Source: an uncultured virus (IMG/VR IMGVR_UViG_3300030508_000022)
Lineage: Duplodnaviria > Heunggongvirae > Uroviricota > Caudoviricetes
Direction: 5' to 3' (one strand)
Length of the DNA stretch: 20,000 nucleotides
IMG/VR virus record: IMGVR_UViG_3300030508_000022
Coordinates: 53,392-73,391 of that record
In this document: piece by piece, positions 2,479 to 15,328 of the stretch
Layout: every line of letters begins with the position of its first letter
Position numbering within the stretch: the first letter of the stretch is position 1
Position numbers and translations under genes: made by a program
The notes under the pieces: generated by a model
Databases searched by the model: none
What the model was told of the DNA's origin: nothing
Seen by the model: only the letters and a program-made list of their open reading frames with translations

Positions 2479-3177
2479 ATGAGTAAAGACAAATTTATTT
2501 TAACTACTGACTATAAGTGCCACATGTTCTCTGCGGTATTCTCCCTTGAAGGACAAGAAAGTATCTTCAACTCAATGGACAAAGCCGACTTGCTCCACTC
2601 CTATATGGTCTCCAGGATCATGATTGAGTTTGATAAGTACGAGCAGGAAGGGATTTTCAATGATACAGAATTTTTAAAAGGCGCTGTCGTTCGAGTTAAA
2701 GATGTTCTGGACTCTGTGAAGAAGAGAGTGTCTGAATCGTACGAAAAGCGACTTGCTATTACTCTTTCCACAATCGAGGAAAGATACCCATTTGAAACAA
2801 AATGTGTAAACGAACTCATTAAAGACCCAACAGGTGTTGTGTGCTCTAGTTTCTTCGTTCCACAAATCATTATGGGGATGATTAATCATCACGAAAATAG
2901 CGAGAACAAGAAACTCCCACACCTGATCTCAATCAACCTTAATCAGTTCGTGGACGCTATTGGATCTTCCAATGAATCTGCAATAACTGATGCTGTCAAT
3001 CTCTGGAGGGAGAAAGACCTAGAGAACCAACTTCAGAATAGTAAAGGGATTGAAAACCTTCGACACCTAATCAAACAAACAGTCCAGGTTAGCCTTGTTG
3101 CTAATGGTGACTTTCAAAAATTTGTACAATCTCAAAATGCTGAAACAAATGCCACCAAAAAAGAAAAGGAGGGGTAG
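2479..3177 (+). CDS. hypothetical protein (232 aa)
   Basis: Long ORF with an A/C-rich leader. No motif recognised. Confidence 0.8.
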   Translation: MSKDKFILTTDYKCHMFSAVFSLEGQESIFNSMDKADLLHSYMVSRIMIEFDKYEQEGIFNDTEFLKGAVVRVKDVLDSVKKRVSESYEKRLAITLSTIEERYPFETKCVNELIKDPTGVVCSSFFVPQIIMGMINHHENSENKKLPHLISINLNQFVDAIGSSNESAITDAVNLWREKDLENQLQNSKGIENLRHLIKQTVQVSLVANGDFQKFVQSQNAETNATKKEKEG

Positions 3178-3805
3178 ACCCCCCAAAGTAAAGGAATCGC
3201 AACTGCCAGTTGTGCCCAAGAAACGGGGTCGTCCATTTAAAAATCCTCCTCAATCACTTCCGACTGAGAAGAAAAAACGTGGCAGACCTTTTAAGAATCA
3301 GCCTACTCCAACTGCTACCAAACCAAAGGTGAGGGCAAAGAGGGTTGAGAAAGTTACCCCAGAAAAACCAATCAAGAAAAAGGAAGTAGTGGTTGATACA
3401 GGGTTTGGATCTGTAGAAGGAAAGATGTTCCTATCCCACCGAGACTCCAAGATACCTAAATTCCAATCCTGGTACAAACAGTACCTGGATGTAGATCCAC
3501 AGAATAATGGAACAGACATTAATGGTCTTTCTGAAGTAATCTCTAAGCTGCAGGATGTAGTTAACGACTACTTCATTGAGAACAGTATAGACCTGTCCAT
3601 TAGGATTCCGGTTATGAGATTGATGCTGGGAGAGAAGATTACAAAAATATTCTTTATGCCAGAAGCTGCTGGAGTGACTGTTGAGATCTATTACAAGGTG
3701 AGTTCAGTTCCATCTGGTGCTAGTCCTTCTACAAAGACAACCTTGGTTTGTAATCAATTCAATTCTGCAGTGAGGTCAGTATTCCCACTGGGAGTTTCTG
3801 GATAG
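3149..3805 (+). CDS. AT-hook-containing putative DNA-binding protein (~218 aa)
   Basis: Start probably ATG 3149 (MPPKKK). Three AT-hook motifs (KRRGRPPK, KKRGRPFK, KKRGRPFK) in a basic N-terminus, followed by a globular-looking domain. Confidence 0.75.
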   Translation: MPPKKKRRGRPPKVKESQLPVVPKKRGRPFKNPPQSLPTEKKKRGRPFKNQPTPTATKPKVRAKRVEKVTPEKPIKKKEVVVDTGFGSVEGKMFLSHRDSKIPKFQSWYKQYLDVDPQNNGTDINGLSEVISKLQDVVNDYFIENSIDLSIRIPVMRLMLGEKITKIFFMPEAAGVTVEIYYKVSSVPSGASPSTKTTLVCNQFNSAVRSVFPLGVSG

Positions 3806-7864: not shown

Positions 7865-7938
7865 CGCCTAGTTGTGGTTCTTGATTAAAAACTAACGCTG
7901 GCTCCTGGCGTCCAGGTAGCAAACATAATATACACATT

Positions 7939-8184
7939 ATGGCAAACGGTAACATTCGTATCACTGTCTCCTTCGGAGGCAACCAGCTCCCAATCAATGG
8001 TCTCCCTGTGGGGTCCACTCTGAGCTGCATTCGTGCCAACCGCAACGTTTCTGCAGCCCTCGGCTACAGCAACGAGAACGTGGAGTTCGTCCTCAACGGC
8101 TCCCGCGCAAGCGACAATACTGTCATCTCTGACGGCGATGTCGTTAACGTTCAGCACAAGGCACACGAGAAGGCTTCCGCCTAG
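7939..8184 (+). CDS. ubiquitin-like (beta-grasp, ThiS/MoaD/Prok-Ub-like) protein (81 aa)
   Basis: Size and strand/helix pattern (IRITVSF...GSTLSCI...VEFVLNG...DNTVISDGDVVNV) are typical of beta-grasp proteins. First gene of an E2/E1/JAB cluster. Confidence 0.85.
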   Translation: MANGNIRITVSFGGNQLPINGLPVGSTLSCIRANRNVSAALGYSNENVEFVLNGSRASDNTVISDGDVVNVQHKAHEKASA

Positions 8185-8200: not shown

Positions 8201-8236
8201 TATCCCCCAATCTCGTTGCGCCGAGATTGGGGGATA
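8201..8236 (+). terminator. perfect 15-bp hairpin between the Ubl and E2 genes
   Basis: TATCCCCCAATCTCG-TTGCGC-CGAGATTGGGGGATA, with a T-rich run about 10 nt downstream. Confidence 0.65.
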
Positions 8237-8282
8237 TCTTAGACATTTATTTTTTTTATATCCCACAAGTTCTTCAAAACAC

Positions 8283-9092
8283 ATGAAACCTCTTATTATC
8301 CTTAACGAAGACGGTGTCGCATACCGTATGGAGCCATTCGCTCTACAAAATGTTAGTGAGATCATCGAACGAGTCTCAAATCAGTCGTTCTCAACCATCA
8401 AAAAGCATACGACTTTTGAGGTTGCAGAATCAGTTGGATCATCAGGCGTACAGTACAAAAGGGTGCCATTCCACCTGTCCATTACGAAGAAGAACGAAGC
8501 TGTCTACTGGGGATATATTCCTGGGATTGTCTTTGATACCTCCTTCCAGATTGTGGAACACAGTGGAACCCCTCGATTGATCGCTGATTTTACTCGCTCA
8601 GCAACTGACGCATTCCAGGATAGGATTTACTGCTCATCGGAATCTCTCAGTACTTCGGATTGCAAGGTTCGGTTCTTGGTTGCTATCTCTCTTACTCCAG
8701 GGGGGTCAGGCAATTACGAAATCAATGCATATTTCTGCTTCCAACTTTTTGATGTGAAAGCGGGGTTAATTATGGGCAACTTCTTGCCGTGTATCCCAAA
8801 CGTCTTCGCTGACGCCAGGGTTTGCATGGGTAGTGCCTTTGATAAGTACACCAATCCTGTCAAAACCTCGGATGAAGAAATCCAGCGTACCCTCAAGTCA
8901 TTCTTTGAGAGCCGCATGAATTCGGATCTGATCACTCAAGGTGCAAATCGCATCGAGTTGGCAGACCAGCTAATTGGGTGGAACAGAGAAAAGAAGCAGG
9001 TTGCTCCCATCAAGTCCGCCAAAACAATCCTCACCGTCAAAGTTGGAAACTACTATCTTGATGGCCTTCCATACGCCACAGTTGGTTGGTAA
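8283..9092 (+). CDS. prokaryotic E2-like (ubiquitin-conjugating fold) protein, similar to Prok-E2/PRTRC protein B
   Basis: Motif P-NVF-DARVCMG with putative catalytic Cys181 and downstream FFESRMNSDL. Context next to Ubl, E1 and JAB. Confidence 0.75.
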   Translation: MKPLIILNEDGVAYRMEPFALQNVSEIIERVSNQSFSTIKKHTTFEVAESVGSSGVQYKRVPFHLSITKKNEAVYWGYIPGIVFDTSFQIVEHSGTPRLIADFTRSATDAFQDRIYCSSESLSTSDCKVRFLVAISLTPGGSGNYEINAYFCFQLFDVKAGLIMGNFLPCIPNVFADARVCMGSAFDKYTNPVKTSDEEIQRTLKSFFESRMNSDLITQGANRIELADQLIGWNREKKQVAPIKSAKTILTVKVGNYYLDGLPYATVGW

Positions 9093-9101
9093 TACACATA
9101 C

Positions 9102-10208
9102 ATGAAATCCTTATTCCAAGAAATGTTGGAGTTGCCTGGATTGCCTGTCAGTTCCGAAACTATTTTCGGAGCTACTCGTCGGTCCAGGATGTTGTCTCTT
9201 CTTGACGACTTTAGTTATCTCAAAAAAAATGGAGGGGAGCTGAAAATATTCCCACTTACTGCAGAACAAAAAGCGGATAGGCGGGACCGAAGTTTTATAT
9301 CTAAGGAGCTATCCGAGTCCTTTGAGATTGGTCAATTCCAGTGCCAAATATTCGATGCAGTTGTTAAAAAGCTGGAAGCAGAGGTTTCCAGAGGAGAAGA
9401 TTCTCCTTGGGCTTTGCGATTCATTGCAGAGATGCCTCGACAGCAGGAGCCACAACAGGCTCCTGTACCACAAGCCCTACCAGAGGTTCGAGTGGAGGAA
9501 CAACCCCTTACGGGAGTTTTCCCAGCTGATGCATTCAATACTCCAGTGGCGCAGCAGGCTACTCCAGCAGTTGTTCCAGTTGTTGCCCCAGCTGCCTATC
9601 AGCCTACAACTCCACGTCAACAAGTTCCCATTGCACCAATTATTGGTGGAATTGGGGCTGAAGTAAATTGGGCGGATATAGCTGAGCCAACACCTGCACC
9701 TAATCGTGGTGCTCCTCAGGTTACAGATGGATTCGTCGATATGGATCCAGCTGACTTTGAGAATCTTCCTACGGCAGCTCCTACTACCCCTCCTCCCGCT
9801 CCCACGGCAGCAGAGGCAGCAGAGGCGGGAGAAGTTCCTCGCGCTACCATGGCCAATGAAACTCCAGCTGTTGGCGAAGGTGCGATTACAGGATTTGGTG
9901 AAATTCGTACACCTGAGGCTGTGGATCAGATTGTTACACCACCAGCTGTTGGTACTACGGTGGTTCAGGTTACTGATGGTGCAGGTGCCGCTGGATTGTG
10001 GCATACACCAGCTGTTGGTAATCAATTCTTTGGAGTTAATCAGGGAGATGACCACATAGTGTTTACCCCTACTGATCACAACCTGTTCATTACTGCTGAT
10101 AACAATCTGGCAGTGGGTGATACTCCAGCTCCAGTAGCTGATGTTCCAGATGTGCAGCAGGCAGTTCGGAATACAGTTCGTAGGCGCGTACGCGCAATAA
10201 ACGAATAG
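9102..10208 (+). CDS. protein with a small N-terminal domain and a long Pro/Ala/Thr/Val-rich lysine-free region (368 aa)
   Basis: ORF starts 9 nt after the E2 stop. Repeated TPAV/PAVG motifs. Last Lys at residue 90. Confidence 0.8.
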   Translation: MKSLFQEMLELPGLPVSSETIFGATRRSRMLSLLDDFSYLKKNGGELKIFPLTAEQKADRRDRSFISKELSESFEIGQFQCQIFDAVVKKLEAEVSRGEDSPWALRFIAEMPRQQEPQQAPVPQALPEVRVEEQPLTGVFPADAFNTPVAQQATPAVVPVVAPAAYQPTTPRQQVPIAPIIGGIGAEVNWADIAEPTPAPNRGAPQVTDGFVDMDPADFENLPTAAPTTPPPAPTAAEAAEAGEVPRATMANETPAVGEGAITGFGEIRTPEAVDQIVTPPAVGTTVVQVTDGAGAAGLWHTPAVGNQFFGVNQGDDHIVFTPTDHNLFITADNNLAVGDTPAPVADVPDVQQAVRNTVRRRVRAINE

Positions 10209-10234
10209 TATACGCACTAACTGAAAGTTAAATG

Positions 10235-10266
10235 GGTCAGTGCCGAAAAGTCGGCACTGACCATTT
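10235..10266 (+). terminator. hairpin, probable terminator or processing site
   Basis: 12-bp stem GGTCAGTGCCGA-AAAG-TCGGCACTGACC followed by ATTTCTT. Confidence 0.6.
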
Positions 10267-10308
10267 CTTAGATAAACAAAAATCAACCAAAAAACAATTA
10301 ATCAAAAT

Positions 10309-11022
10309 ATGAAACAGAACTACTACGTCATCGGATGTGGAGGGGTATGCAGCTATTTCTTGCCAGCATTCCTCAAGACCCTCAATTACTCCAAGGAGTT
10401 TAAGGGGTCAACAGTAACCCTAGTTGATGGCGATACAATCGAGGACAGGAATTATGAGCGTCAGCTCTTCGCCAGCGGATTGACGGGAATGAACAAGGCA
10501 GAGGCCTTGATGTCGGTTCTTGGTGAAAGTCACCCCAACATCAATCTCAAGACACATTCCGAATATGTGACTGGATCATTCCCCATTAAGGATGGTTCTG
10601 TTGTCATTGCGTTTGTCGACAATCATCCGGCTCGAAAAGACATCCTATCAATTGTTGATCGTCATGAGGCAAAGTGCTTCATTGGAGCCAATGGTCGGAT
10701 ATCTGCCAGCTCGTATTATTACGACCACAAGTGGGAGGGGACTACTCTGGATCCGCGAGTGCGATATCCTGAGATACTTACTACTGAGCGCGGTTCACCT
10801 GTCCATGCGGCTGGGTGCAATACCGAAGAGCACCTGGAAGAGATTCCACAAACATCACTGGCAAATTACTTTGCCGGAGCACACACACTACTCTTGTGGA
10901 ACTTCTGGACCACTGAGTACAAAGAACTTGACCCCGAGCAGTCATACGACTTCTGGCCGGTTGAGATAAGCAACACCGACATGCGCTATGCGACAAAGAT
11001 GGTTGGAGACCTAAAGGAATAA
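10309..11022 (+). CDS. ThiF/MoeB/E1-family adenylyltransferase (Ubl-activating enzyme)
   Basis: VIGCGGVC nucleotide loop, VDGDTIEDRNYERQ, NKAEAL and VDNHPAR motifs. Candidate thioester Cys170 (AAGC) followed by Q---AN. No CxxC zinc pairs. Confidence 0.93.
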   Translation: MKQNYYVIGCGGVCSYFLPAFLKTLNYSKEFKGSTVTLVDGDTIEDRNYERQLFASGLTGMNKAEALMSVLGESHPNINLKTHSEYVTGSFPIKDGSVVIAFVDNHPARKDILSIVDRHEAKCFIGANGRISASSYYYDHKWEGTTLDPRVRYPEILTTERGSPVHAAGCNTEEHLEEIPQTSLANYFAGAHTLLLWNFWTTEYKELDPEQSYDFWPVEISNTDMRYATKMVGDLKE

Positions 11023-12636
11023 ATGGAACAAACACCAGAACAATCAATACCAGCATCGGAAGAGCAAGTGGATAAGCCGTTCTTCCCAATAGCTCCATAT
11101 CACTACTTCAAAAATACATCGTATCGGTCTTCGATGTTGTCTGATCGTAGGGCCCAGTTGGTTAGATGGGGTCTCAATCCACAGAGAAATATATTTGTGG
11201 GTAATTTTGCGGGGGCGCTCTTACTAGAAGGACACCCTGGTGCAGATTGCGTCCCATTTGACATGACGGCATGTGGATATCCTATCGTACCTGAAGCGTA
11301 CGAAAAGATATTCAGTCACATGACCCCTATGGGGTACTTCAATCCAGTAATTGATGGAAAGATTCTGTCATACATGGCGGATATTCCATTCATTCCATTT
11401 GAGGTAACAAAGGCATGCAAGACGGTTTGCGGGTCTAACTACAGCCTTCCCAAGGGCAAGTTCTTGAGCGTTGGTCGTCGTACCAGGAGCTCTCGTGGTG
11501 GTGGACGGTCTTCACTGTTTGACCCGACCAATAACAATATTCAGGTTGAGTTTATTCGTCTTGCTGACGGAGATACCTCAACTCCTACTGTTATGACAAT
11601 TGAGGACAACGTGAACATGGCCAATTTCGATATAAGTAATATCTTTATCGACTCAAAACATACGGTTAATAAAAGTCTCTTGGGATTATTTATTCTACCT
11701 ATTGGTTCAGTGGTGTGGTTTTGGAACAATCAAAAATGGACTACCTGCAGCGTTAAGACATCTAAGACCAAAGATGGTGTTATGGACTTCAGTCTTGTTG
11801 AGGTTGCAGCAACAAAAAGTGGTGGATCCAACGAGAGGGCAGTTGTGTTTCAAACATCGGGTGAGGAGATCGAGGTACATAAAACAGTATCCAAAATGAT
11901 GGAGAGTGACACTATTCGAGTTGCTCAAAAGAGCATCAAGTCGGTTGGTGTCAAGGATTCAACCTACGGAACTGTACGAGGACAGATCATGAAAATGCTC
12001 TGTAACGAGTTCGGCTCTGAGATCCTGGGTCCCGTAAAGACCAACCTATTGCAGTCAAGTGAACACAAGACGATGAAAAACGTCATTGAGTTTGCCGACA
12101 GGCTGGTGTCCAAAACCCCATCAATTAGTGTATCACTGCACAGTGGTTCAACAATGATGTCTATATGGCAAGCAGCTATTCGTGCTGCTGAGGATCAGGT
12201 TCCACTTTACTGGGATAACCAGTTTGTCGAACTTGGTTCAGGTAACATATCAAGTATACTAGGGGGGTTTGGACTTCATTGCTACCGTCCAAGTAGTGAC
12301 AACTACGATAGAACATTGTCTCATCTTCAGATGGACCCCAAAACAGCAAAGGGTCTATTTAAGAAAGTCAAAGTTGAGTGCTCTGGGACTTTTGTGTCCA
12401 CAATCAAGAGGACATCAAAAGCCAAGATCAAAACCGCCATAATGGTGGAAGTTCCTTCGGCTATCGCCAATCAACCCTCAAACATATCCAAGGGATTGAT
12501 TGAGGCATTTATACAAAGAAAGGAAATATTTTCTCGAAGCATGTTTGAGGAAGAAGATCCATCGTCGCCCCAAGAAGAGTCTATTCAGAGAGTAGATTTT
12601 GTCTTGGATAAAAAGTCACTCATAATCAAAAGATAA
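11023..12636 (+). CDS. hypothetical protein (537 aa) within the Ubl cassette
   Basis: Starts immediately after the E1 stop (TAA-ATG) and ends 7 nt before JAB. No family recognised. Confidence 0.85.
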   Translation: MEQTPEQSIPASEEQVDKPFFPIAPYHYFKNTSYRSSMLSDRRAQLVRWGLNPQRNIFVGNFAGALLLEGHPGADCVPFDMTACGYPIVPEAYEKIFSHMTPMGYFNPVIDGKILSYMADIPFIPFEVTKACKTVCGSNYSLPKGKFLSVGRRTRSSRGGGRSSLFDPTNNNIQVEFIRLADGDTSTPTVMTIEDNVNMANFDISNIFIDSKHTVNKSLLGLFILPIGSVVWFWNNQKWTTCSVKTSKTKDGVMDFSLVEVAATKSGGSNERAVVFQTSGEEIEVHKTVSKMMESDTIRVAQKSIKSVGVKDSTYGTVRGQIMKMLCNEFGSEILGPVKTNLLQSSEHKTMKNVIEFADRLVSKTPSISVSLHSGSTMMSIWQAAIRAAEDQVPLYWDNQFVELGSGNISSILGGFGLHCYRPSSDNYDRTLSHLQMDPKTAKGLFKKVKVECSGTFVSTIKRTSKAKIKTAIMVEVPSAIANQPSNISKGLIEAFIQRKEIFSRSMFEEEDPSSPQEESIQRVDFVLDKKSLIIKR

Positions 12637-12643
12637 CAATACT

Positions 12644-13855
12644 ATGTCCGAAAGACTGTATATCCACAACAATAAGCCTCTTTACTTGAGGAGCCTGACG
12701 GAAGAAATATCTGTGTATACTCCTGTTGAGTTTACCGAGCTGAAGAGCGAGCCATTGCTACGACTCAAGACTGGGAAGATGTCCCTGTCTCTGTGGCGCA
12801 CCATTGCGTTCTTCTTCAAGAAGATAAATGATACTGAAAAATCCGAAGCTCAGGTTCGTTTGTTTTACAACAAAACAACTCGGATGTGGAAGGCTCACGC
12901 CTTCCCTCAGGAGATGAACACTGGGATGACGACCAAGGAGTTGCCAGACCATGAGAGGTTCCAGACTGACATGAACGAGATGCTGGCCGGTGGTTTCCAT
13001 CAGTGGGGAACTGCCCATAGTCATTGCAACGCTACAGCGTTTCAGAGCGGGACGGACAAGACCGACGAAGATAACTCAGCTGGTATCCATATCACCATGG
13101 GAACGGTGTCTGGGCCGAAGATTGATCTTCATGCTCGGTTTACTGTCATTCTGCCTGGATCTCTTGAGTTTGATGGTGAAGGCAAGGAGACGGCTGTGAA
13201 GGCAAGGGTGTATCAATCCAAGCCGGATCTTCGCGACTTCGTTGAGGTTCCTAACTGTTTCGTATCAGAAAATGCTCCACCAGAGATCAGGACCTTTGCC
13301 TTTGATTTCTTGATCAATACTCCCAGTGAGGAGTTGGTTGATCAAGAGCTGGTAAAGCGCTGGGTTGAGAACCGCATCCCCAAGGCCCTCACGCCTAGGG
13401 TGATTGTGCCATATGCTCAACGTCATCCGTACATGGGGTTGCCCCATCACGGTACCGGGGCTCACCATCAAGGATCCGACTATTGGAACCGTGGGGGTAA
13501 GTCAAACAGTTCAAAAAAAAAGCGAGAAAGGGCGGGGCGTTCGACAGCTGCTTCGTCGGCGCTGATGCCGGTTAATCAGTCTCTGATAGAACCACAGGTA
13601 AACAAGGTCGCGGCAAGGCACAAGATAACTCAACTCAATCTCAAGAACATTCTATCTAAAGCAGATGGGAATCTTACTAGCTCTGAGCTGAATGTCATCA
13701 TTGATATGCAGACCAATATCTTCTCGGTATACAATATATCCGAGGCATGCATGATCTTGAATCTTGAGGAATGGATTAAGGGCCGGAGGATTGCTAGTGG
13801 GATAGAAAATGGAGCCTCCATGGAAGATATCATGATGGGGTATGCCGGAGAATAA
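12644..13855 (+). CDS. JAB/JAMM (MPN+) metallopeptidase with a C-terminal extension
   Basis: Upstream Glu (KSEAQV) plus an exact H-x-H-x7-S-x2-D motif: HSHCNATAFQSGTD. GIHITMG strand follows. Confidence 0.92.
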   Translation: MSERLYIHNNKPLYLRSLTEEISVYTPVEFTELKSEPLLRLKTGKMSLSLWRTIAFFFKKINDTEKSEAQVRLFYNKTTRMWKAHAFPQEMNTGMTTKELPDHERFQTDMNEMLAGGFHQWGTAHSHCNATAFQSGTDKTDEDNSAGIHITMGTVSGPKIDLHARFTVILPGSLEFDGEGKETAVKARVYQSKPDLRDFVEVPNCFVSENAPPEIRTFAFDFLINTPSEELVDQELVKRWVENRIPKALTPRVIVPYAQRHPYMGLPHHGTGAHHQGSDYWNRGGKSNSSKKKRERAGRSTAASSALMPVNQSLIEPQVNKVAARHKITQLNLKNILSKADGNLTSSELNVIIDMQTNIFSVYNISEACMILNLEEWIKGRRIASGIENGASMEDIMMGYAGE

Positions 13856-13969: not shown

Positions 13970-15328
13970 ATGTTAAAATCTATACAAATTTTTATCATCG
14001 ATAAGCTTGTTAGAGAGGCAAGGTCTGCATATATCTCGCTTGGTCGAGAGTTCCCTGCGATCCAGACTCCACTCGAAATCGAAGATGTAAAAACAAAAAC
14101 GTTCCTTGCTGCATTTCCTGGTATTGATGCAGTTGCACTCGCTTCTATTGAGAGTGGGCTATTGGCACAGCACATCAATGTGACTGAGTCGATCTTGCGG
14201 AACAACAACCTGTACGCAGTGATTGGGTCTATTGTTGCGAGTAGTTCGTACGACTTCTCTACTGTTGCACCTGACTTCGTTTCACCATATGTTGATTCAG
14301 AGGAAATTGAGTCGGTTGTTAGTGGTCTCGTTGGTGCAGTCCAGCCAGTCGAGTTTGATTGGGCCGCAAAGAAGGTGGTCCCCAAAGCCACTACTATCCT
14401 CCAGGAAGTAAACATCAACGGGCCTATTGTCCCCGCAAGGTCATTGGACTGGCAGGAAAACAGGGTGGTAACCCAAGCACCAACCCCAACACCAACTCCA
14501 ACACCAACTCCAACACCAACACCAGTGAATCCAAATCCGCTAGCAGCACAAGTTATTCCGGCAAATCCACTTGCCGCACAAGTTGTTCCAGCCACAGAGC
14601 TGAATCCACTCGTTGGGGCAGTTGTCCCAGCCCAGGATGTAGTTGATGTCAATGAAGATGACTTCTTTGTCGAAGTTGACTCTTTGCAAGCCAAGTATCC
14701 AGGGTGTCTAGTTGTCGGGTTGTTCCGACCATACAAGACCGAAAAGAAAGATATGGGAAACTACAGCTATCACCTTGAAGAGACATCATCCGTCAAAGAT
14801 GCTGCTTTCTTCAAGGCCATTAAAGAGCACAATCTCGAACTAGATGTCAAAGACTTCCTTGTTCGAGATTCTGAAACATTTGAGGAAGTGCTCGAATCAA
14901 TGAGAAAAGCTATTATTGAAGATAAGACTGTCACAATCTCCACAGGCACCACCAGTGACATGACGACTCCTGGATTCAAGACAGGGATCACCATCAGTAT
15001 TGGTAAGAAACCAAGATCTGATAGGTACCCTGACGGACAATATAACGATCAGGATGAGTGGGTCGATGATGAGGAGAAAAATATCGCAGACATAGTTAAT
15101 AGTGAGGATGATGTAATTCCGGTTACTGCTTACTTCCAGGAAAATACCTGGGGAATTAGGGCGACTGGGGATTACTTTGTATTCCCCAACAATCAGTCGA
15201 ACCCTTCGGTTCTTGATTTGACGAAGAAATTCTTCGTTATCCCAACCAGCATCATCTCGGATGAATTCCGTGAGGCGTTGATTGAGGCATTTAATGACTT
15301 CACTTTTGACGAAGACTTCAGTCTGTAA
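13970..15328 (+). CDS. acidic hypothetical protein with a (PT)n linker (452 aa)
   Basis: Long ORF after an A-rich leader. Two domains separated by PT repeats and NPLAAQV repeats. Confidence 0.85.
   Translation: MLKSIQIFIIDKLVREARSAYISLGREFPAIQTPLEIEDVKTKTFLAAFPGIDAVALASIESGLLAQHINVTESILRNNNLYAVIGSIVASSSYDFSTVAPDFVSPYVDSEEIESVVSGLVGAVQPVEFDWAAKKVVPKATTILQEVNINGPIVPARSLDWQENRVVTQAPTPTPTPTPTPTPTPVNPNPLAAQVIPANPLAAQVVPATELNPLVGAVVPAQDVVDVNEDDFFVEVDSLQAKYPGCLVVGLFRPYKTEKKDMGNYSYHLEETSSVKDAAFFKAIKEHNLELDVKDFLVRDSETFEEVLESMRKAIIEDKTVTISTGTTSDMTTPGFKTGITISIGKKPRSDRYPDGQYNDQDEWVDDEEKNIADIVNSEDDVIPVTAYFQENTWGIRATGDYFVFPNNQSNPSVLDLTKKFFVIPTSIISDEFREALIEAFNDFTFDEDFSL
14480..14632 (+). repeat. intragenic CCAACN hexamer repeat (PT)n followed by three ~30-nt NPLxxxVxPA repeats
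   Basis: Directly visible in the DNA and in the translation. Confidence 0.8.

Follow-up and report, generated by a model that had tools for sequence, protein, structure and literature searches.

Why would a phage gene lying between an E2-like gene and an E1 gene encode a protein with 278 consecutive residues free of lysine? We analyzed this gene, whose product is called X here, in a window of 20,000 nucleotides (the whole stretch of DNA analyzed). The contig belongs to a jumbo phage, and the cassette carrying X is a very distant PRTRC-like system.

Genes and layout of the cassette

The genes and hairpins around X are as follows (window coordinates).

7939..8184, + strand, candidate ubiquitin-like (Ubl) protein P0002, 81 aa (Pfam ThiS E = 0.071, below threshold)
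8201..8236, + strand, terminator-like 15-bp hairpin followed by a T8 run, after the Ubl candidate (from folding energy)
8283..9092, + strand, E2-like protein, 269 aa, candidate catalytic Cys181 in ARVCMG (Pfam Prok-E2_D)
10235..10262, + strand, 12-bp hairpin, 27 nt past the X stop codon, between the E2-X pair and E1
10309..11022, + strand, ThiF-type E1 adenylyltransferase, 237 aa (Pfam ThiF 1.4e-10, above cut-off)
11023..12636, + strand, 537-aa protein whose start abuts the E1 stop
12644..13855, + strand, JAB/JAMM peptidase, 403 aa, motif HSH-x7-S-xx-D (Pfam Prok-JAB 1.8e-4)

The Ubl and E2 assignments are those of candidates, with scores under the curated thresholds. The E2-like protein matches Prok-E2_D with E = 0.0019 (18.4 bits; gathering threshold 25) and PRTRC_B with E = 0.09. 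Its homolog P0021 (58% identity) retains C181. Comparison with a bona fide Butyrivibrio E2_D by hhalign gave a probability of 0.2, with the VC-x-G and FF-x-x-x-x-N-x-D motifs aligned. The AF2 model of the E2-like protein (two sequences) had a pLDDT of 37.5 and was unusable. P0002 has no C-terminal Gly(-Gly) for adenylation, and PDB sequence matches give no support for a beta-grasp fold. Its gene has a GC3 of 0.70 compared to 0.33-0.56 for the neighbors. Residues 1-73 of P0002 are Lys-free, with Lys only at positions 74 and 78 and the tail HKAHEKASA; the probability of no Lys in 73 residues is only 0.012. The Lys-free Ubl core at residues 1-73 mentioned in an earlier note on this DNA thus exists in this separate 81-aa ORF (7939-8184) and not in X, which has six Lys in that region.

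The E1 matches PRTRC_ThiF with 1.1e-10, far under the equivalog cut-off, and its best match among the PADLOC E1-E2 models (3.7e-6) is confined to the nucleotide-binding part. The JAB protein matches PRTRC_A with 6.4e-5; its motif was read from the translation. The 537-aa protein matches no family in Pfam, NCBIfam, PHROG or PADLOC. The E2 and X genes are separated by 9 nt, X lies upstream of the ThiF E1 and the JAB gene is found further downstream. The E2-X pair is bracketed by the two strong hairpins, at 8201-8236 (-28.9 kcal/mol, z -5.4) and 10235-10262 (-25.1 kcal/mol, z -6.4), each of which was equaled in stability by 0 of 200 shuffles. Homologs of E2 and of X from a sister lineage occur on contigs with matching lengths, 8395 and 190646 bp in either case. 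The genome has 44% GC and lacks Shine-Dalgarno sites.

Comparison with PRTRC, Prok-E2_D and Bil cassettes

As laid out in row 6d of Iyer et al. (2006; PMC1779556), PRTRC or Prok-E2_D-ThiF-JAB systems (TIGR03735-03737) are likewise co-oriented cassettes on a mobile element. PRTRC-type cassettes and the phage cassette share a small candidate Ubl, a Cys-containing E2-like protein, a short E1 of the ThiF type and a JAMM peptidase, and both contain additional proteins of unknown function. PRTRC membership is defined by ThiF, protein A and protein B over equivalog cut-offs (NCBIfam TIGR03735/6/7). The phage proteins score lower: ThiF 41.3 bits vs 144.75, A 22.6 vs 101.8 and B 12.1 vs 131.45. The PRTRC C/D/E/F proteins were not found in the phage cassette, and PF02195, used to look for a ParB-related gene, had 0 matches across the 73,391-bp record, estimated to be 58% complete. 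In the type 6d description (PMC1779556), a His located C-terminal to the catalytic Cys is absolutely conserved in the E2-like protein. In contrast, neither of the two E2 sequences here has a His after C181, a comparison that presumes C181 to be catalytic.

Five related E2_D/ThiF cassettes were compared, from Thermoanaerobacterium, Butyrivibrio, Photobacterium, Chroococcidiopsis and Salmonella phage Arash. An X homolog (hmmsearch and phmmer, best E 0.78) or any lysine desert was found in 0 of the 5. The Thermoanaerobacterium gene in the slot of X encodes a Lys-rich product (23 of 124 residues). Phage Arash is in culture, and MS has detected the E2-like and E1 proteins of its cassette (PMC10585845).

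The Bil system (BilABCD) is also similar in that it combines E1, E2, Ubl and a JAB-type DUB, in the passages cited (10.1101/2023.09.26.559546; 10.1101/2023.09.04.556158). There, Bil conjugates to lysines and is promiscuous in a heterologous host. Bacterial E1/E2 pairs can conjugate non-specifically, even to a Lys of their own Ubl (the relevant part of 10.1101/2023.09.26.559546). Bil as described in these passages is a host-encoded defense, whereas the cassette here is phage-encoded and its Ubl candidate lacks a C-terminal Gly.

Composition of protein X

X is a protein of 368 aa (ORF 9102-10208, of which 9372-10208 encodes residues 91-368 and the stop codon) and consists of two parts.

9102..9371, + strand, X residues 1-90, conserved N-terminal module with all eight Lys and the sole Cys
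9372..10205, + strand, X residues 91-368, lysine desert; acidic, Pro/Ala/Val/Thr-rich, Cys-free and almost Ser-free

The complete list of Lys positions is 2, 41, 42, 48, 57, 68, 89 and 90; Cys is found at position 81 only, and the last Ser are at 96 and 101 with none beyond. Residues 91-368 contain 0 Lys, 13 Arg, 16 Asp and 19 Glu, together with 10 Phe, 3 Trp and all three His of the protein. The basic C-terminal stretch (356-364) is RNTVRRRVR and the protein ends in RAINE. Residue counts therefore bore out the earlier observations that residues 91-368 lack Lys and Cys, that Ser is missing after about residue 101 and that the basic C-terminus uses Arg only. The Lys content of the neighboring cassette proteins is ordinary (E2 5.9%, E1 5.5%, 537-aa protein 7.3%, JAB 6.5%). 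A lysine desert has been defined either as a Lys-free region of at least 150 residues or as a Lys-free region covering at least 50% of a protein of at least 150 aa (Szulc 2023 and a 2026 review, in the wording given in PMC13696103). The Lys-free region of X has 278 residues, which is 75.5% of the protein (278/368), and is a desert under either definition. By the charge-hydropathy rule (our own estimate), the X tail is not clearly disordered.

An antisense ORF of 269 aa (9477-10286), codon-aligned to X, was not accepted as a genuine gene. Its product would be rich in Cys, Trp, Ser and Asn, and the scarcity of Leu and Ser codons accounts for the ORF.

X matches no family in Pfam, NCBIfam, PHROG or PADLOC at their thresholds, with one chance-level NCBIfam match (E 0.067). 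The AF2 model (three-sequence alignment) had a pLDDT of 31.3 and was unusable. ESM Atlas searches with both ends of X gave no usable match, and a profile search of the PDB using the X alignment gave 0 matches. The tail is probably disordered. X shows no E3 signature (RING, HECT or RBR), neither a Zn-binding Cys/His pattern nor a catalytic Cys domain. Pup is a small disordered protein with GGQ or GGE at its end. The form with a C-terminal glutamate is described in the Pup passage of PMC13696103. X was rejected as a Pup-like modifier: it has 368 aa and ends in RAINE, and its homolog P0004 (see below) ends in MQEG.

Chance, codon usage and linker composition

At the proteome Lys rate of 5.9%, the probability of finding no Lys in 278 residues is 4.5e-8. 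At the 4.1% Lys of the other PATVQ-rich stretches in the same genome (16 K/394 aa), it is 1e-5. The choice of basic residue also differs: K:R is 0:13 in the desert, whereas those stretches have 16:5 (Fisher 1e-5). The desert has 0 in-frame AAR codons where its own position-specific base frequencies predict 6.2, and the same DNA contains nine AAR in frame 2 and two in frame 3. Eleven of the 13 Arg codons are CGN vs 349 of 940 genome-wide (P 6e-4); CGN Arg codons are two mutations away from any Lys codon. GC drift favoring Arg was rejected as a cause because the GC3 of the desert is low (0.295). Recent repeat expansion was rejected as well, since a search for tandem repeats in the desert region found none.

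Unrelated low-complexity linkers of this phage are not equally Lys-free: they contain about 4% Lys, although Lys-free cores of 60-102 aa occur in its other Pro/Thr linkers, which are Ser-poor too. Lys-free runs of at least 150 aa occur in 3 of the 83 ORFs of the genome (441, 278 and 162 aa), the longest in a structural protein. There are 19 runs of at least 90 aa, most of them in a Lys- and Arg-poor structural module. This module has 2.8% Lys vs 7.3% in the remaining genome, and because Arg (2.15%) and acidic residues are equally scarce, it is low in overall charge and not specifically Lys-depleted. Outside the structural module, only X exceeds a Lys-free run of 102 aa. It was concluded that DNA composition, tandem repeats and the make-up of Pro/Thr/Ala-rich linkers of the same phage do not account for the desert.

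A distant homolog keeps the desert

P0004 is the sole distant X homolog among 1,835,955,588 representatives (E 8.8e-20, 34% identity). It has 0 Lys and 9 Arg over 306 aa, from residue 84 to the C-terminus, and 4 Lys in its N-terminal part. Lys depletion is thus kept in one of one distant homolog. The desert appears to be conserved across homologs beyond composition, at a sample of n = 1; with a single independent homolog this conservation is in part mere shared ancestry. Only three Arg positions are common to the two deserts in the alignment. Ser depletion is found in both (X 2/278, P0004 1/306), and for X is partly shared with the other Pro/Thr linkers of the phage. The absence of Cys is not conserved, as the P0004 desert has three Cys, two of them polymorphic. 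Identity between X and P0004 is 34/60 in residues 1-60 and 10/50 in residues 61-110. K2 and K57 are invariant in the three-sequence X alignment and the other X Lys are not kept in P0004. Nine distinct natural substitutions fall within the two deserts and none is to Lys; the sole Lys-creating substitution (Q82K) falls in the N-terminal module.

Two short motifs within the desert were found by comparison with P0004.

9648..9689, + strand, motif B, GIGAEVNWADIAEP, X residues 183-196
9729..9770, + strand, motif A, GFVDMDPADFENLP, X residues 210-223

Motif A aligns to GFDDMDPEDFVGLP of P0004 with a score of 53, which was reached by 0 of 500 shuffles (maximum 45). Motif B aligns to GNAVEFNWEQVADP with a score of 39, against a 95th percentile of 37 in 500 shuffles. 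The spacing between the two motifs varies (27 vs 67 aa).

Other searches for X relatives returned little. Queried with all of X or just residues 1-115, word-indexed searches retrieved its own cluster only, and a metagenome scan returned solely an identical 4.3-kb contig. There was no match in viral-contig scans (run with X, P0004, the E2 and its alignment, and also with the N-terminal motif as a degenerate DNA pattern), in genome-contig scans or in INPHARED by tblastn with X and E2 as queries. P0005, an Arg-rich repeat protein, was set aside as a marginal match (E 9.5e-4), in which about 60 aa from the C-terminal part align at 45% identity.

Comparison with known lysine deserts

Eukaryotic ubiquitin-proteasome proteins with lysine deserts include UBQLN1/2, Slx5 and RAD23-type shuttles, in the portions cited of PMC10169902, PMC10665810 and PMC13696103. 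UBQLN1/2 have a Lys cluster in the N-terminal domain followed by a long desert (the UBQLN passage of PMC13696103). On these accounts, X is similar in having a low-complexity and probably flexible region, Lys-free over at least 150 aa and more than 50% of the protein. It is also encoded with Ubl-conjugating enzymes, its remaining Lys are N-terminal and the pattern is kept in a homolog. X differs from the eukaryotic proteins as described there in being viral/prokaryotic, without sequence kinship, UBL/UBA or RING domains or a proteasome context. Its desert is nearly devoid of Ser too. The passages cited of PMC13696103 also report deserts in Actinobacteria with a Pup-proteasome system and an enrichment in Mycobacterium phages. 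As in those phages, X is phage-encoded and has a long Lys-free region, with a hypothesized adaptation to lysine-directed tagging. Unlike the Pup/Mycobacterium phage case outlined there, the tagging genes are phage-encoded, adjoin X and are of the E1/E2 type, not PafA/Pup; GC bias is no explanation here because the genome has 44% GC. The parts of the literature searched report no lysine desert within a prokaryotic or phage E1/E2/JAB cassette.

Proposed role of X and alternative explanations

We tentatively propose, at a little short of even confidence, that X is a cassette-specific tethered adaptor, a lineage-specific accessory subunit whose flexible tail has been purged of Lys against self-conjugation. 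The adaptor or scaffold part of the earlier proposal fits the architecture, as X combines a conserved N-terminal module with a fast-evolving acidic tail carrying two conserved motifs. The E3-like part does not fare as well: an enzymatic role of this kind is unlikely, judging from a tail that is Cys-free, the presence of only three His and the lack of a family match. The argument that the desert independently suggests lysine-directed ligation was dropped as circular, because it already assumes the cause of the desert.

In the proposed mechanism, the N-terminal module (about residues 1-60 to 110) would dock X onto a cassette enzyme. E2 is the most likely partner because of the 9-nt spacing and the hairpins that bracket the E2-X pair. 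The remainder of X would form a long, acidic, proline-rich flexible chain, and its two short docking motifs may bring in a target or a further subunit. Tethered beside the charged E2~Ubl thioester, such a chain would expose any Lys of its own to the active site; such Lys would therefore be removed by selection, with Arg used where positive charge is needed, so that self-conjugation in cis is avoided. We infer a disordered tail, contact of X with E2 or E1, ligation to lysine by the cassette and a Lys purge caused by this chemistry. Several observations speak against this reading: Lys content is normal in the cassette enzymes, eight Lys persist in the N-terminal module of X, none of the five related cassettes has X or a lysine desert, Lys-free runs abound in the genome, the E2 and Ubl candidates score under the curated thresholds, the Ubl candidate ends without Gly, the desert is kept in a single independent homolog, and the charge-hydropathy estimate does not clearly indicate disorder.

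It is also conceivable, though unlikely, that the desert is a biophysical or compositional by-product. X would then be an acidic Pro/Ala/Val/Thr linker or a cohesive low-complexity region, with an Arg preference unrelated to conjugation and due to guanidinium-aromatic contacts, condensate/sticker behavior or motif recognition. The 10 Phe, 3 Trp and 13 Arg of the tail are consistent with this, as are the Ser-poor Pro/Thr linkers with their Lys-free cores and the related cassettes that do without such a protein. Lys and Arg differ in phase behavior, and compositional bias is the main alternative explanation for deserts in the pertinent passage of PMC13696103. P0004 would keep the pattern because both proteins inherit the same linker type. 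However, the basic residue in the other linkers of the genome is mostly Lys, the GC3 of the desert offers no drift toward Arg, the preference for CGN among the Arg codons is left unaccounted for and no other ORF outside the structural module has a Lys-free run above 102 aa.

Improbable in our estimate is a shield against a lysine-directed system of the host (a Bil-type Ubl defense, pupylation, or acylation and proteolysis), a pressure that would also keep the phage structural proteins Lys-poor. The low Lys and many Lys-free runs of the structural module agree with it, and so do the deserts of Mycobacterium phages and the attachment of Ubl to the central tail fiber of a phage by a host Bil system (the tail fiber passage of 10.1101/2023.09.04.556158). 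Yet the module is just as poor in Arg and acidic residues, Lys content is normal in the phage's other non-structural proteins, and neither the GC content nor the lack of Shine-Dalgarno sites points to an actinobacterial (Pup) host, if host taxon can be read from such features. Still less probable is that X is the acceptor the cassette is meant to modify, or a pseudo-substrate that acts as its brake, the desert limiting conjugation to the N-terminal Lys cluster or blocking it while X sits on E2: all eight Lys do lie within residues 2-90, K2 and K57 are invariant and the JAB peptidase could undo such a mark, but only two of the eight are conserved in P0004, which itself has four N-terminal Lys.

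Implications

Lysine deserts are an emerging idea of how proteins of the ubiquitin system escape their own chemistry. In the sources cited, documented cases are so far eukaryotic, while for actinobacteria with Pup and for their phages such deserts have been proposed. The full picture suggested by the preferred adaptor reading is a jumbo phage with its own Ubl conjugation machine and a dedicated tethered adaptor, whose 278-residue arm has been purged of Lys and nearly of Ser; taken as a whole, we consider it rather doubtful. If it is wrong, X would usefully caution that an acidic linker with Arg as its only basic residue can arise unrelated to conjugation. If it is true, X would give the lysine deserts of the eukaryotic ubiquitin system their first parallel in prokaryotes or viruses. 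The E2 would then be a promiscuous lysine (perhaps serine) ligase, aimed via the two motifs at host or phage targets. The desert would be a sequence-only marker of genuine lysine ligation by a poorly understood type of cassette, and X would provide a handle for finding the targets of the cassette.

Composition of the lysine-free tail

Protein X (P0001, 368 aa), encoded between an E2-like gene and a ThiF E1 gene, contains Lys only at positions 2, 41, 42, 48, 57, 68, 89 and 90. Its single Cys is at 81 and its final Ser residues are at 96 and 101. The remaining tail, residues 91-368 (9372-10205; called the desert below), carries 44 Ala, 37 Pro, 32 Val and 25 Thr together with 35 Asp+Glu and 13 Arg, and RNTVRRRVR lies at its C-terminus. 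An earlier note made from the sequence alone had described this tail as free of Lys and Cys, with no Ser after about residue 101 and with the same C-terminus; its coordinates and counts were correct when compared with the X translation. It had also called "the Ubl core (1-73)" Lys-free, which does not hold for X: six Lys are found in that part of X, and the Lys-free 1-73 segment belongs to a separate 81-aa ORF at 7939-8184 (P0002), with Lys at 74 and 78 only. The Lys-desert observation itself is solid.

The probability of finding no Lys in 278 residues is 4.5e-8 at the rate of the called proteome (83 ORFs; Lys 5.9%, Arg 4.2%). As a control, following the earlier note, we took all further regions of the genome that are rich in Pro/Ala/Thr/Val/Gln (394 aa, collagen-like repeats left out), which contain 16 Lys and 5 Arg, giving P = 1e-5 for zero Lys in the desert. 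The K:R ratio is 0:13 in the desert vs 16:5 in the control stretches (Fisher 1e-5), a comparison that favors the earlier note. Arg may be preferred to Lys for biophysical reasons, an explanation that would suit the 13 Arg of the desert and sits less easily with the Lys-bearing control stretches; we consider it rather unlikely. At the DNA level, AAR triplets occur 0, 9 and 2 times in frames 1, 2 and 3, with 6.2 expected in frame from the desert's own position-specific base frequencies. The desert DNA as a whole shows no shortage of AAR. The desert GC3 is low (0.295; genome GC 44%), which leaves no GC drift towards Arg, and no tandem repeat was found beneath the desert. CGN codons make up 11 of its 13 Arg codons vs 349 of 940 genome-wide (P 6e-4), and a CGN codon cannot be converted to Lys by one single change. 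An antisense 269-aa ORF (9477-10286, - strand), codon-aligned with X, was rejected as a by-product because its product is rich in Cys, Trp, Ser and Asn and because Leu and Ser codons are scarce in X.

Lys-free runs elsewhere in the genome

Lys-free runs of at least 150 aa are present in 3 of the 83 ORFs. The longest (441 aa) lies within a nearly uncharged, Ser/Thr-rich structural protein of 518 aa (L003:17441-18997; L003 and L004 are parts of the same genome outside the window). There are 19 Lys-free runs of at least 90 aa, mostly in the first 20 kb. The baseplate/fibre module there (L003:229-19772) has 2.8% Lys and 2.15% Arg vs 7.3% and 5.0% in the remaining genome, and its acidic residues are likewise low. 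A shield from a host lysine-directed system, perhaps common to X and this Lys-poor virion module, would link the two, and we regard it as improbable: Arg and acidic residues are low together with Lys in the module. Three small ORFs with collagen-like Gly-Pro-X repeats, one on the minus strand, are found at L003:15124-16295 and are free or nearly free of Lys and Arg.

Outside the structural module, the runner-up to X is a 102-aa run in a 452-aa protein (13970-15328, + strand) directly downstream of the JAB gene. This protein has a (Thr-Pro)9 repeat, and Lys in its residues 44-241 is limited to 134, 135 and 139, which leaves two runs without Lys, of 90 and 102 aa; the C-terminal half, in contrast, is rich in Lys. 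The cassette is thus adjoined by a second Lys-depleted, Pro/Thr/Val-rich region.

The cassette and its phage

The cassette genes are all on the + strand.

7939-8184, +: candidate Ubl (P0002); ThiS match at E 0.071, tail without Gly
8201-8236: 15-bp hairpin and T8 run, z -5.4
8283-9092, +: E2-like protein; Prok-E2_D match at E 0.0019, sub-threshold
9102-10208, +: X, starting 9 nt after the E2-like gene
10235-10262: 12-bp hairpin, z -6.4
10309-11022, +: ThiF E1, 1.4e-10
abutting E1 downstream, +: 537-aa protein of no known family
12644-13855, +: JAB protein with complete HxH-x7-S-xx-D motif

Cys181 of the E2-like protein is kept in a homologue of 58% identity. The high GC3 of the candidate Ubl gene (0.70, C3 0.54, vs 0.33-0.56 in neighbours) and the very stable hairpin with T8 (8201-8258) suggest a separately terminated, highly expressed small gene. 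The closest NCBIfam families of the cassette are PRTRC ThiF, A and B, all far under the equivalog cut-offs, and no ParB was found within the 73 kb of the record; the cassette is thus related only very distantly to the PRTRC/E2_D type and is not a member. The contigs carrying the sister-lineage homologues of E2 and those carrying the homologues of X agree in length (8395 and 190646 bp), which suggests that the linkage is kept; adjacency is not thereby established.

The window is the terminal 20 kb of a 73,391-bp IMG/VR record with an estimated completeness of 58%. The genes studied also occur, unchanged or nearly so, on contigs of up to 187-190 kb. Elsewhere in the record are genes for a split DNA polymerase III alpha, a DnaB-type helicase, a primase, RecA, an SbcC-like ATPase, a baseplate J protein and an intein-bearing 1014-aa protein (L004:6141-9185, - strand; splicing domain at residues 182-610, Pfam 1.3e-9). 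From contig size and the replication, recombination and baseplate J genes, the source is a large uncultured tailed phage. No Shine-Dalgarno-like sequence was found upstream of the Ubl candidate, E2, X and E1 (7920-7940, 8265-8285, 9085-9104 and 10290-10311), where the DNA is A/T-rich; this may hint at how translation is initiated in the host. A 236-aa ORF with a TTG start (3095-3805, + strand) contains three copies of a KKRGRPFKN/KKRGRPPK repeat that look like AT-hooks (Pfam AT_hook E 0.018, under cut-off); such repeats are unusual in a phage.

Homologues and anatomy of X

A full HMMER scan of 1,835,955,588 representatives gave three proteins at E <= 0.001: X's own cluster, P0004 (389 aa, E 8.8e-20, 34% identity) and the marginal P0005 (E 9.5e-4). 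The remaining homologue searches (viral, metagenome and genome contigs; INPHARED tblastn) returned X only. The Lys of P0004 are at 2, 57, 62 and 83, and its last 306 residues (84-389) lack Lys altogether; this stretch contains 62 Asp+Glu, 9 Arg, 3 Cys and a single Ser. The desert is thus kept in this one homologue. The earlier note had named normal Lys content in homologues, or equally Lys-free low-complexity regions, as grounds for giving up the desert; neither comparison spoke against it.

Identity between X and P0004 is 34/60 over residues 1-60, 10/50 over 61-110 and 75/258 with 41 gaps beyond 110, and only three Arg positions are common to the two deserts. The Lys-free, Arg-containing state has thus outlasted extensive divergence in the one lineage that could be compared. 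Members of the two 90% clusters differ by 11 distinct substitutions, nine of them in the deserts and none of these nine to Lys; the sole substitution that creates a Lys, Q82K, affects the N-terminal module. Of the three Cys in the P0004 desert, two are polymorphic.

The conserved core of X is its N-terminal 60 residues (MK..QE.LE.PGLPV..ETIFG.T.R.RMLS..DDF ... LTAEQK). In an ungapped scan of the desert against P0004, with 500 shuffles as control, GFVDMDPADFENLP (X 210-223) matched GFDDMDPEDFVGLP with a score of 53, reached by 0/500 shuffles, and GIGAEVNWADIAEP (X 183-196) matched GNAVEFNWEQVADP with a score of 39 (shuffle 95th percentile, 37). The two motifs are 27 aa apart in X and 67 aa in P0004. 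X is thus predicted to consist of a docking module that continues into a flexible arm bearing short linear motifs. Its basic C-terminus is not conserved in P0004. No family or relative was found in Pfam, PHROG, PADLOC or PDB, NCBIfam gave one chance-level match (BrxA/BrxB, E 0.067), and an AF2 model from a 3-sequence alignment had a pLDDT of 31, too low to be informative. P0005 (234 aa) is Arg-rich with two repeats and matches X 305-364 at 45% identity; X may end in a small module that is also used in other proteins, or this match may be spurious.

Related cassettes

A tblastn search with E1 found 28 plasmid records and one phage record, and five related cassettes were compared. Thermoanaerobacterium pMU3262 has E2_D, a 124-aa protein and ThiF in this order; the 124-aa protein is Lys-rich (23 K) with a C-terminal Gly, and on inspection alone we class it as Ubl-like. 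Butyrivibrio pNP144 has E2_D, a JAB-bearing 558-aa protein, Rad52, a 113-aa protein and ThiF. Photobacterium carries a classical ParB-linked PRTRC cassette and Chroococcidiopsis a JAB-ThiF pair. The cultured 181-kb Salmonella phage Arash (OQ632216.1, L010:1340-4539) carries four consecutive genes: a 60-aa ORF, one resembling E2_D (E 0.024), JAB (1.4e-7) and ThiF (7.8e-15). Its E2-like and ThiF proteins are annotated as "structural protein" from virion mass spectrometry, and the words ThiF and ubiquitin are absent from the paper describing Arash (PMC10585845). None of the five has an X homologue (best E 0.78) or a Lys-free run above 144 aa, a run located within a ThiF protein. X with its desert is therefore a lineage-specific addition and not a general need of such cassettes. 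Among annotated sequences, the E1 of the window is closest to short ThiF + E2_D cassettes located among replication and recombination genes (Rad52, helicase, SSB, ArdC) on 110-145-kb non-mobilizable "plasmids" of Clostridia/Bacilli, which look like phage-plasmids.

Possible function of X

Eukaryotic UPS proteins are known to contain lysine deserts, and similar ones have been proposed in actinobacteria with Pup and in their phages, according to a review (PMC13696103). In the literature searched, including that review, we found no published desert inside a prokaryotic or phage E1/E2/JAB cassette. The same source gives the logic of avoided self-conjugation for eukaryotic deserts and describes UBQLN1/2, which X resembles in having a Lys cluster in the N-terminal domain followed by a long desert. 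Such logic is plausible for bacteria because Bil E1/E2 conjugates non-specifically, even to Lys of its own Ubl (10.1101/2023.09.26.559546). Ser is scarce in both deserts (2/278 in X, 1/306 in P0004), and hydroxyl acceptors may have come under this pressure as well; we give this little weight since other Pro/Thr linkers of this phage are Ser-poor too (8/222). That X is a designated acceptor or a pseudo-substrate brake, with its N-terminal Lys as candidate sites, seems improbable.

Our preferred reading draws on one homologue and on sub-threshold E2 and Ubl assignments, and is offered tentatively. The E2-like protein and X would be co-made as a bicistron with a hairpin on either side. The N-terminal module of X would be the docking part, and the flexible acidic arm would be held out, its two motifs binding a target or another subunit. 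Tethered next to the reactive E2~Ubl thioester, the arm would be more exposed than any other substrate in the cell, and Lys would for that reason have been selected out, with Arg supplying positive charge where needed. X may then be a tethered adaptor whose arm lost its Lys by selection against conjugation.
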